From Candidatus Omnitrophota bacterium (GTDB lineage: Bacteria; Omnitrophota; Gorgyraeia; 2-02-FULL-51-18; JAGOUK01), in the NCBI GenBank assembly GCA_047639455.1, contig JBLINS010000003.1:3-64002 (forward strand): 64,000 nucleotides of DNA. Direction: 5' to 3'. A program made the translations under genes and the position numbers. The notes beneath the pieces are model-generated. The model made no database searches. It was given only the letters and a program-made list of their open reading frames with translations, and was not told the origin of the DNA. Below are positions 61,260 through 63,320 of the stretch, one piece after another (position 1 is the stretch's first letter; every line of letters begins with the position of its first letter).

Positions 61260-62405
61260 ATGACGTCCTTTCACAAAAAAGTTGCCCCAGCGGCGTTGAT
61301 TCAAAGAGATTTTGAAAACCTAAACGAATACAAACAATTGTATTGCTCTAACCCCGTTAGAGAAGCTTTGTACATTCAGTCCATAGAAGGTCGCTCACAT
61401 ACAGGCTCAGGTGTATTCAAAAAAAGAGCCTTTGTGAATACAACCATTGATGATGTCGTCAAGGCCTTAAACCGCAATCCAGACGAAACCAAGGCCTTTA
61501 GGCAGAAGAATATTGACGAAATCCTTGATTTTGTTGATGCTACTATTAATGGCCAAGAACGTAATCGTTTGGTTAATTTGGACGGTGAGCCATTTTTGGG
61601 CATTCCTTTATTTAAAGACAAACAAGTTAATGCCAGAGATGTTTTGAGAGGTTTGTATTTGGGAGGATTGCGAGATAATCCTGATATTCGCAAAGAGACA
61701 GAGTCGCGTTATCAAATCCGCATAGGTTGTGGCGAATGTTATCACGTTGATATACGCCAATTAGAAATCCAAGGTTTTAATGGCGACAGCATTTCACATG
61801 GTGAACATGAAGATCAAATAGAGGCATTCAAAGAATCGGGACTTATTATTAATCATCCTGAGGATGATGAAAATACAGTACCCGAAGAATTTCGACGTTA
61901 TTTTTATATACGTCACCGGGAAGGTCCAGGCCAATCGGATGATGCAGCCATCATTATTGCCGGCATTCTTTATAATGCCGACGTCGCTTTAGGGGTGTTT
62001 TTGTCTGACGCTATAGATACATTAGAAAAATACACGCTAATCAATAAAGACCAAGACCAAGAGCTTTCATACTATATAGGAAGAGCCTTTAAGGATTTGA
62101 ATTTGAGCATGGATGATGTGTATGAATTAGCCTATTTATGCGCCATCCCAGAGAGGGAAGAGGAATTCATCCCCGACAGTTCATTACGTTATTTATTATC
62201 CGTGGACGAGAAGTCAGGCGTATCAGCCTTACAAGCCCACTTACTATTCATGGAAGACAAAAAATTCCCCAAAATGTATGTGAGCTTCAAGCGCGCATCC
62301 AATGTCCTCTTTTACAAATTCATCCGCCGCCAATTGACCAATGTCCACCGAATCAACACACCCACACCCCAAGACACCCCTAATCTCACCACCAAAAGCC
62401 CTTAA
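61260..62405 (+). CDS. hypothetical protein (no recognisable domain)
   Basis: The ATG at 61260 sits just after the fmt stop. Its last about 30 codons and the downstream hairpin are duplicated at 62459-62590. Confidence 0.4.
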   Translation: MTSFHKKVAPAALIQRDFENLNEYKQLYCSNPVREALYIQSIEGRSHTGSGVFKKRAFVNTTIDDVVKALNRNPDETKAFRQKNIDEILDFVDATINGQERNRLVNLDGEPFLGIPLFKDKQVNARDVLRGLYLGGLRDNPDIRKETESRYQIRIGCGECYHVDIRQLEIQGFNGDSISHGEHEDQIEAFKESGLIINHPEDDENTVPEEFRRYFYIRHREGPGQSDDAAIIIAGILYNADVALGVFLSDAIDTLEKYTLINKDQDQELSYYIGRAFKDLNLSMDDVYELAYLCAIPEREEEFIPDSSLRYLLSVDEKSGVSALQAHLLFMEDKKFPKMYVSFKRASNVLFYKFIRRQLTNVHRINTPTPQDTPNLTTKSP

Positions 62406-62590
62406 CCGATTTTAACACTCCCGGGGTGTTAAAATGGTTGCTGTTACAGGGCTTAGGCCTTTTTACAAATTCATCCGCCGCCAATTGGCCAATCCCCACC
62501 GAATCAATGCGCCTACACCCCATGGCGCCCTTAATCTCACCACCAAAAGCCCTTAACCGATTTTAACACTCCCGGGGTGTTAAAATGGTT
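62312..62590 (+). repeat. tandem direct repeat of about 130 bp (about 88 percent identical), each ending in the hairpin ttttaacactcccggggtgttaaaa
   Basis: 62312-62440 (coding, the 3' end of the 389-aa ORF) against 62459-62590 (non-coding), aligned by eye. Confidence 0.75.
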
Positions 62591-63320
62591 AGGAGTTGTG
62601 ATATAAAGAGGCATGGAAAGAAAGCAGCCTTTAGCGGATGGTGAGATTTATCATGTTTTTAATAAAAGCATAGCTGGTTTCACTATATTCAATGTTGATA
62701 GAGAGTATGAACGTTTCAAGCAAATGCTGCTTTTTTTCTCCGTTGATCAAAAGCATTCTAAGTTCTCACATTTCCAATCTTCAAAATTTGTTGATAAATC
62801 GGGCTTTTATAAGGCTTTTAGAGAGACTTTTGTTGACTATGAAGTTCGTGTAGAAATTATCGCGTATTGTATTATGCCAACACATTTTCACTTAATGCTA
62901 AAACAAGTCAAAGGGGACGGGATTTCTCGTTTTGTTGGAAATCTGCAGAATAGTTATACGCGATATTTTAATGAGACCCGTCGGCGCAAAGGCCCATTAT
63001 GGGTGGGTAGATTTAAGAATGTCTTAGTTGAAACCGATGAGCAATTATTGCATTTAACTCGTTATTTGCACTTAAATCCAGTTAAGGCCAACTTATGTCG
63101 GAATGCCTCAACATGGGACTATTCTTCGTTCCAAGAATATATAGGTAAAGATTCAGAAGCTAATCTCTGCACATACGCCTCTTATCTAGATGAGGCTGGA
63201 GAGGGCTACAAGGACTTTGTGGATGAGTACTCCAATGAACAAAAAGCCGCTCTAATAATTAATAAACTAACTCTTGATTAACCGATTTTAACACTCCCGG
63301 GGTGTTAAAATCGGTGGAGA
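62555..63320 (+). mobile_element. IS200/IS605-like (RAYT) unit with subterminal hairpins in direct orientation
   Basis: Hairpin ccgattttaacactcccggggtgttaaaat occurs at 62555-62590 (left) and 63283-63320 (right) around the transposase gene. A third copy sits at 62404-62440. Confidence 0.6.
62613..63281 (+). CDS. REP-associated tyrosine transposase (RAYT) / IS200-like Y1 HuH transposase
   Basis: N-terminal GEIYHVFNKS...F. HuH motif PTHFHLML. C-terminal YLHLNPVKANL with the catalytic Tyr. 222 aa. Confidence 0.8.
   Translation: MERKQPLADGEIYHVFNKSIAGFTIFNVDREYERFKQMLLFFSVDQKHSKFSHFQSSKFVDKSGFYKAFRETFVDYEVRVEIIAYCIMPTHFHLMLKQVKGDGISRFVGNLQNSYTRYFNETRRRKGPLWVGRFKNVLVETDEQLLHLTRYLHLNPVKANLCRNASTWDYSSFQEYIGKDSEANLCTYASYLDEAGEGYKDFVDEYSNEQKAALIINKLTLD

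Follow-up and report, generated by a model that had tools for sequence, protein, structure and literature searches.

We analysed a 64-kb window (64,000 nt of contig JBLINS010000003.1) from a Candidatus Omnitrophota metagenome-assembled genome (MAG; JGI 3300054976), in which a 222-aa open reading frame (ORF) for a Y1 HUH nuclease-transposase lies between an ORF of 381/389 aa and the gene gap, accompanied by three copies of a single hairpin. The gene resembles the RAYTs (REP-associated tyrosine transposases), which are known for their association with REPs (repetitive extragenic palindromes). Here we describe the gene, its hairpins, its relatives in other genomes and the history of the site, and weigh what kind of element it may be.

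The transposase gene and its hairpins

A reading of the sequence alone (hereafter the sequence-only reading) had placed three same-orientation hairpins around the transposase ORF, and we located them as three exact + strand copies of the 25-nt palindrome TTTTAACACTCCCGGGGTGTTAAAA, at 62410-62434, 62561-62585 and 63286-63310. No further copy was found in the window with up to 3 mismatches allowed (0.00 expected from 100 shuffles), and a looser, stem-only pattern run over the same 64 kb returned no credible extra hairpin. The common unit is 39 nt long, TTAACCGATTTTAACACTCCCGGGGTGTTAAAAT.G.T, and starts with TTAACCGA; its copies, H1 to H3, are listed in Table 1 with the other features of the locus, whose coordinates had been given correctly in the sequence-only reading, only slightly too wide. 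All three copies have one orientation as judged from a T·G pair and the loop, and a reading on the - strand deviates at 3 positions. Folded as single-stranded DNA, H1, H2 and H3 reach -10.7, -11.4 and -14.7 kcal/mol, with z-scores of -4.3 to -6.7; both upstream copies have a bulged G at the foot, and H3 forms a perfect stem of 15-17 bp. The TTAACC feet contain the stop codons of both the upstream and the transposase ORF. We considered AACC as a one-sided tag comparable to GTAG and rejected this, since AACC base-pairs with GGTT at the 3' foot and is therefore part of the palindrome.

Table 1. Features of the transposase locus, in window coordinates
Feature	Position	Strand	Remarks
Upstream gene, orthologue of a ~440-aa Omnitrophota CBS-domain protein	61260..62405	+	CBS domain gone via an in-frame deletion of ~180 bp
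Duplicate copy 1, coding 3' tail of the upstream gene plus H1	62306..62439	+	~92% identical to copy 2, with one indel
Hairpin H1	62402..62440	+	foot TTAACC holds the stop codon of the upstream 389/381-aa ORF; left flank homologous to the gene tail of L001
Junction filler of 18 nt, GCTGTTACAGGGCTTAGG, between the copies	62440..62457	+	unique in the window
Duplicate copy 2, non-coding pseudo-copy of the gene tail plus H2	62458..62590	+	more diverged at sites informative against L001
Hairpin H2, upstream cognate hairpin	62553..62591	+	foot has a bulged G; stops 27 nt short of the start codon; position as in the paralogue at L002 and in the family
RAYT-like Y1/HUH nuclease-transposase gene, 222 aa	62613..63281	+	Y13-H14, H91-F-H93, catalytic Y151 in RYLHLNP; AAGAGG ribosome-binding site 4 nt upstream
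Hairpin H3, downstream cognate hairpin	63278..63316	+	perfect stem; TTAACC foot holds the TAA stop of the transposase; position and right flank homologous to L001's solo hairpin
Promoter-like site for gap, TTGACT-17-TATAAT	63342..63370	+	kept in L001; marks the end of the inserted material

The assignment of the ORF to the Y1/HUH enzymes of the RAYT/IS200 superfamily, proposed from its motifs, is borne out by a match to the Pfam family Y1_Tnp (PF01797; 33 bits, gathering cutoff 23), and none of the NCBIfam IS200 models matched the protein at E<=0.01. Among structures in the PDB, the best match by sequence is 4ER8, the E. coli TnpA_REP bound to a REP hairpin (E=8e-5), with the IS608 and ISDra2 transposases at E>=0.14. 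The motif H91-F-H93 aligns with H59-M-H61 of 4ER8, and Y151 with the Tyr of VDYIYINP. A fold search with an AlphaFold2 model (mean predicted confidence, pLDDT, 80.6) likewise ranked 4ER8 first (E=1.7e-5, TMt 0.61), with the IS200 and IS608 enzymes at ~1e-2. In an alignment of 21 homologues Y13, H14, H91, H93, W130, Y151, N155, P156 and a W-x-x-S-S motif are invariant, and the window protein retains all 41 invariant family columns; the catalytic Tyr is thus intact on careful alignment. Its Tyr motif is of the Y---NP form (YLHLNP), which in the scheme of Quentin et al. 2018 (PMC6006769) defines class 2 (RAYT-like), as against Y---Q for class 1 (IS200). By sequence and predicted fold, the protein is nearer to RAYTs than to IS200.

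The closest homologue, P0002 at locus L002, is 62% identical and comes from the same metagenome. It probably belongs to the same MAG as the window gene: the protein accessions of the two lie 1,839 and 1,320 apart in two depositions, and GC content is 41.5% vs 41.2%. P0002 is surrounded by unrelated genes, and its layout is the same, with two direct copies of AACCATTTTAACACCCCAGGGGTGTTAAAAT, one at the stop codon and one 30 nt ahead of the start codon, spaced 724 nt apart. The stems of the hairpins at the two loci are identical despite a dS of ~2.2 between the genes (saturated synonymous sites), and dN/dS between them is 0.13.

The two hairpins flanking P0002 are the only other copies that we found, so that the search for further copies succeeded at a paralogue and found none elsewhere in ~73 kb (the window and ~9 kb of locus L003). 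The hairpin is thus not detectably proliferated in the window genome, having been seen at this locus and at L002 only. The exact hairpin had no match in the genomes of GTDB, where the window MAG is not a species representative. When the loop was left free, a scan of a metagenome collection gave 25 palindromes, each of them single, AT-rich in the loop and without a transposase beside it; that collection does not include the metagenome from which the window comes, so these hits have no bearing on this genome.

The family of hairpin-flanked genes

A scan of the GTDB species representatives gave at least 562 relatives, from which 80 loci were fetched and flanking hairpins could be evaluated for 81 genes. 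Members occur in Omnitrophota, Patescibacteria, Planctomycetota, WOR-3, Elusimicrobia, Nitrospirota and others, and at least 155 clusters (50% identity) match at E<=1e-30. The window protein belongs to a large clade of ~220-aa proteins from Omnitrophota, Patescibacteria and Planctomycetota.

The arrangement of hairpin, gene and hairpin is the rule in this clade. A matched flanking pair, defined by up to 2 mismatches in a core of 17-23 nt, was found for 55 of the 81 genes, the upstream hairpin lying 7-112 nt before the start codon and the downstream one beginning anywhere from 13 nt ahead of the end of the stop codon to 57 nt beyond it. Direct pairs predominate (36 direct, 17 inverted, 2 ambiguous). 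Stems have a median length of 13 bp. Their tops share the conserved form CACCY-(3-nt loop)-RGGTG and their feet often read AACC...GGTT, with the stop codon within; the middle varies with compensating changes. Seven other genomes contain pairs of paralogues, 48-60% identical, with different hairpins. Thirty of 81 loci have extra cognate hairpins nearby, up to 5 kb away to the left or right, with as many as ~10 in 5 kb at L035, 8 at L101 and 6 at L105, and several flanks consist of REPIN-like doublets. These loci show the REPtron pattern known for RAYTs, of a gene with cognate palindromes that are also scattered (PMC6006769, PMC3733652, PMC5581495); our literature search found no paper linking RAYTs with Omnitrophota or Patescibacteria.

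The unit is also a discrete module, sometimes relocated or transferred and sometimes inherited vertically. Two pairs of loci from different species, L079/L081 (91.7% amino acid identity, 727 nt) and L053/L060 (84%, 696 nt), have only the segment from hairpin to hairpin in common. On the other hand, the pairs L061/L070 and L066/L072 are syntenic over kilobases.

Two further arrangements in the family may be recorded. At L031 (5001-6412) and L041 (61-1458), divergent family paralogues (47-53% identical) stand in tandem, with the intervening hairpin common to both. At L081 (3360-3410) the loop of the upstream cognate hairpin is broken by an 18-nt insertion that has a small GC hairpin of its own (CCCGCCagaGGCGGG).

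The neighbouring gene and the 134-nt duplication

Homologues of the upstream ORF are ~430-450 aa long and end in a CBS domain, which the window copy of 381/389 aa does not have; the N-terminal part of these ~440-aa Omnitrophota proteins is uncharacterised. In the syntenic relative L001 (GCA_041294365.1) the genes run def-fmt-(453-aa gene)-gap-pgk-tpi, with no transposase among them. Nucleotide alignment shows that the window gene is short of ~180 bp in frame, which correspond to L001 7122-7301 and encode the CBS domain. Homology with the end of the L001 gene takes in the last ~60 bp of the window gene, its stop codon within TTAACC and the hairpin, and H3 with the intergenic DNA up to gap is homologous to the single hairpin of L001 and its right flank. 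Since L001, which has no transposase, ends in a homologous tail with the TTAACC stop and a hairpin remnant, the C-terminus of the upstream protein is ancestral, and the suggestion that it was derived from the end of the element has to be given up. The C-terminus was indeed remodelled relative to its homologues, as the sequence-only reading had wondered, through the in-frame loss of the CBS domain, which that reading had missed, and not through the element. Between the window gene and that of L001, dN/dS is 0.06-0.07 at a dS of ~1.3; the gene is under strong purifying selection despite the loss of the domain.

The single hairpin of L001 has five changes (85% identity) and no longer folds (-0.8 kcal/mol, z +1.1). 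We rejected neutral decay, since this level of identity at a dS of ~1.3 means that the hairpin was preserved through most of the divergence and that its loss of pairing is recent. Two outgroups with the order fmt-gene-gap, L109 and L110, have neither hairpin nor transposase. With a hairpin at the same site in L001 and none in the outgroups, the common ancestor of the window lineage and L001 must already have had one at this stop codon. Two histories are consistent with this: the whole unit may be ancestral, with L001 having lost the gene by recombination between the direct hairpins, or the copy in L001 may be a solo hairpin, the gene having come later in the window lineage.

The duplication of the 3' end of the upstream gene, previously put at ~130 bp, is confirmed as a direct repeat of 134 nt with ~92% identity and one indel (Table 1), the second copy of which is the non-coding pseudo-copy that had been proposed. 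Outside the hairpin unit the copies differ at ~10 of 95 positions, and they are identical over its common 38 nt. Copy 2 has more changes relative to L001 at informative sites and is therefore a decaying pseudo-copy; both copies carry the CBS deletion, so that the deletion preceded the duplication. With 8-11% divergence between the copies vs a dS of 1.3, the duplication is young relative to the split from L001. A plain tandem duplication of 151 bp was rejected, because the two units show no relation over their last ~20 nt and a filler of 18 nt has to be assumed. The filler shares an exact 12-nt match, TGGTTGCTGTTA, with the start of gap ~1 kb downstream (62427-62446 vs 63515-63534; 63523-63534). 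This may be the source of a template switch or chance, as a match of this kind is expected by chance about 1 time in 4 in a 3-kb all-against-all comparison, and we do not build on it. No similar duplication of flank plus hairpin was found among the 80 related loci; one apparent case (L031 4779-4888, just upstream of a family member) was rejected as a scaffolding artefact, an exact 55-nt duplication flanking a run of Ns.

Nature of the unit

The E. coli REPtron offers a close comparison. Its enzyme TnpA_REP (RayT/YafM; 4ER8; Ton-Hoang 2012, PMC3333891; Messing 2012, PMC3479197) is the top PDB match both by sequence and by predicted fold, with the HUH motif, the catalytic Tyr in Y---NP and the W motif all aligning. 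In both cases a low-copy gene is bracketed by cognate palindromes, and in other family members, as in E. coli, these palindromes are scattered in intergenic DNA. The window protein differs in length (222 aa, against 165 aa in E. coli), with an extended stretch linking strand 1 to the HUH motif and a long C-terminal helix. The family hairpins, with their AACC...GGTT foot and CACCY/RGGTG top, are also unlike the E. coli REPs with their GT[AG]G foot.

Within the published classification the nearest group, by published motifs alone, is TnpA_Y1 subclass 2.1, whose Y, W and SS motifs fit the window protein. This subclass is described by Y[IV]HLNP, W[EQ], SS in the proximal tail, a median length of 238 aa, about 2 copies per genome at ~49% identity and a patchy, wide distribution (PMC6006769), and has its counterparts in Bertels group 1 and in the TIRYT/TIRtron of Di Nocera et al. 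2013 (PMC3733652; TIR, terminal inverted repeat). However, its motif NH[YF]H has N before the HuH where the window protein has T, and its tail is a C-terminal helix-turn-helix domain whereas that of the window protein is predicted as one long helix. In addition, subclass 2.1 was reported without REP-like sequences (PMC6006769), in contrast to the window clade, whose full palindromes stand on both sides and at 30 of 81 loci are dispersed as well. In TIRtrons, the TIRs can reach into the 3' end of the gene, are in some cases self-complementary and have GGGGWSAS in common (PMC3733652), which resembles GGGGTGTT here.

We consider it probable that the locus is a REPtron/TIRtron-type unit, with a class-2 (RAYT-like) Y1 HUH gene placed between cognate palindromes of its own. 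In its favour are the Pfam and NCBIfam matches, the TnpA_REP-like fold, the layout conserved in the family and repeated with identical stems at L002, the scattering of cognate hairpins at other loci, and the states of the site in L001 and the outgroups. The Y---NP motif, the low copy number (a single paralogue beside the window gene) and the paralogue identities of 48-62% fit class 2 (PMC6006769). Several observations weigh against this reading. The hairpins have TTAACC at the foot and not the canonical GT[AG]G of REPs, and Q95, which contacts GTAG in E. coli, is V/E here. The flanking hairpins are direct, as in IS200/IS605, and not inverted as in the E. coli REPtron. The match to NCBIfam NF047646 (REP_Tyr_transpos, REP-associated tyrosine transposase; E=2e-19) reaches 69.9 bits, below the curated cutoff of 80, which suggests a relative of that model and not an equivalog. 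There was no dispersed copy of the hairpin in ~73 kb of the window genome, again unlike the E. coli REPtron, whereas RAYTs are defined by their association with an over-represented repeat. Finally, we saw no tie between the duplication and the enzyme; an origin during single-strand transposition, as suggested in the sequence-only reading, gains no support from the 18-nt filler or from the lack of a like case in the 80 related loci.

An unlikely but serious alternative is that the ~760-bp unit at 62553-63316 is an autonomous insertion sequence (IS) of IS200/IS605 type, with H2 as the left end, H3 as the right end and single-stranded excision and insertion, the third hairpin and the duplication being scars of insertion beside a pre-existing cognate hairpin. 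The enzyme shares the Y1 HUH superfamily and the Pfam family with the TnpA proteins of IS200, IS608 and ISDra2, the unit is absent from the sister locus L001 and from the outgroups, a compact unit of ~0.7-0.8 kb with subterminal hairpins around one small gene is shared with that family, and the hairpins have the same orientation, as IS200/IS605 ends must, 36 of 55 family pairs being direct. Moreover, the shared segments of L079/L081 and L053/L060 are bounded sharply at the outer feet of the hairpins, with unrelated flanks, so that two family pairs carry a discrete hairpin-to-hairpin segment in different contexts; horizontal transfer of whole REPtrons explains such common modules equally well, however (PMC6006769). 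The protein argues against this alternative, being of class 2 (Y---NP) and 222 aa long where IS200/IS605 enzymes have Y---Q and only a core of ~150 aa, with fold and sequence matches much weaker than to 4ER8 and no match to an IS200 model. Near-identical copies were not seen, paralogues in the same genome being 48-62% identical vs 99% for IS200, although this count rests on MAGs, whose assembly may merge copies of that kind. Of 82 family genes, 44 are separated by 4 kb or more from both ends of their contig, a placement unlike that of multi-copy ISs in MAGs. The boundaries of the family units fall at the feet of the hairpins, whereas those of IS200/IS605 lie 10-19 nt off, and the inverted pairs (17 of 55, or one third of family members) are incompatible with excision of the whole unit from one strand. 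Precise IS200-type excision would leave no solo hairpin, yet L001 has one.

The remaining alternatives concern parts of the evidence. That the hairpins are ordinary host elements, such as terminators or mRNA-stabilising stem-loops of the genes beside them, with no relation to the enzyme at the DNA level, seems to us scarcely credible. Each of H1 to H3 does begin at a stop codon or just before a start codon, H1 matches a simple terminator pattern, and REPs are known as RNA elements (PMC3733652). On the other side, the same hairpin is found on both sides of 55 of 81 family genes, its sequence changing along with the protein, the stems are identical at paralogous loci with a dS of 2.2, the outgroups of the same gene order have no hairpin, and a terminator-like T-rich tail is present only at H1, where it is weak, and not at H2 or H3. 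It is also highly improbable, if somewhat less so, that the duplication is an artefact of metagenome assembly in which two strain variants of the gene tail were joined through the repeated palindrome. The contig is indeed of metagenome origin, palindromes tangle assembly graphs, the ~8% difference between the copies is what strain variants might show, and L031 provides a genuine scaffolding artefact at a related locus, with duplicated ends around an N gap. But the junction contains no Ns, the 18-nt filler, unique in the window, would need read support of its own, copy 2 has gained changes at would-be coding positions as a pseudo-copy would, and a 34-nt repeat is below typical final k-mers.

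A bolder reading, which we hold to be rather doubtful, takes the ~220-aa clade (T-H-u-H, Y[ILV]HLNP) as an undescribed TnpA_Y1 subclass between IS200 and RAYT that moves as a hairpin-to-hairpin module with a stop codon in its foot and, in some genomes, gives rise to REP-like hairpin families. On that view, hairpin-primed copying that carried adjacent host coding DNA along would have left the 134-nt duplication as its footprint.

If the locus is a REPtron/TIRtron-type unit, then by analogy with E. coli TnpA_REP and its REPs the enzyme would bind the folded single-stranded hairpins and cut and rejoin them at their feet via a 5'-phosphotyrosine, and the hairpins may stay uniform because they are its substrates. 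In the common ancestor of the window lineage and L001, the hairpin, and probably the whole unit, would have come to lie at the stop codon of the CBS-domain gene; L001 is now left with one hairpin remnant. In the window lineage the neighbouring gene lost its CBS domain by the in-frame deletion, and later the 134-nt piece, consisting of gene tail and hairpin, was duplicated, with the filler at the junction. Illegitimate replication or a template switch at the very stable hairpin is the most likely route for this last step, which we propose with low confidence.

The locus alone adds little, since good descriptions exist of RAYT/TIRYT genes flanked by cognate palindromes. Its modest value lies in the comparison of three states at one orthologous site, where the unit is complete here, represented by a solo remnant in L001 and missing from two outgroups, which lets the gain and loss of such units be followed directly. 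In addition, a large clade from poorly studied phyla keeps hairpin, gene and hairpin together as a module, and the nearest published subclass was reported without REP-like sequences. The annotation of the neighbouring gene can be corrected to a CBS-domain protein minus its domain through an in-frame deletion. A caution also follows for this genome, in which the hairpin should not be counted as a genome-wide REP family.

The sequence-only reading had also proposed that at least two REP-like systems coexist in this genome, for which we found no support, as the hairpin was found only at the locus in ~73 kb and otherwise only flanking the paralogue at L002. It was right that the hairpin is distinct from the GTCATTGCGAG repeats, to which it is unrelated. 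These repeats occupy 18 sites in the window vs 0.8 expected, mostly as inverted pairs. They form elements resembling miniature inverted-repeat transposable elements (MITEs), with inverted ends CGTCATTGCGAG...CTCGCAATGACG ~80-190 nt apart and an internal palindrome GCGGCAATCTAGA...TCTAGATTGCCGC, for example at 9208-9297, 36524-36629, 49643-49746 and 57948-58139. Between def and fmt, at 60090-60190, lie three tandem copies of a 33-nt unit, CGTCATCCTGAGGAACGCGTAGTTATGGCAACC, adjoining a GTCATTGTGAG end at 60288-60298.

Elsewhere in the window, Rfam group II intron domains at 15942-17772 (D1-D4 at 15942-16064, catalytic domain at 17696-17772) surround a 428-aa ORF at 16422-17708, presumably the intron-encoded protein. 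A c-di-GMP-I riboswitch (1863-1950; 66 bits) stands directly before a 579-aa ORF at 1954-3693, and a single giant ORF of 3,943 aa extends over 20804-32635.

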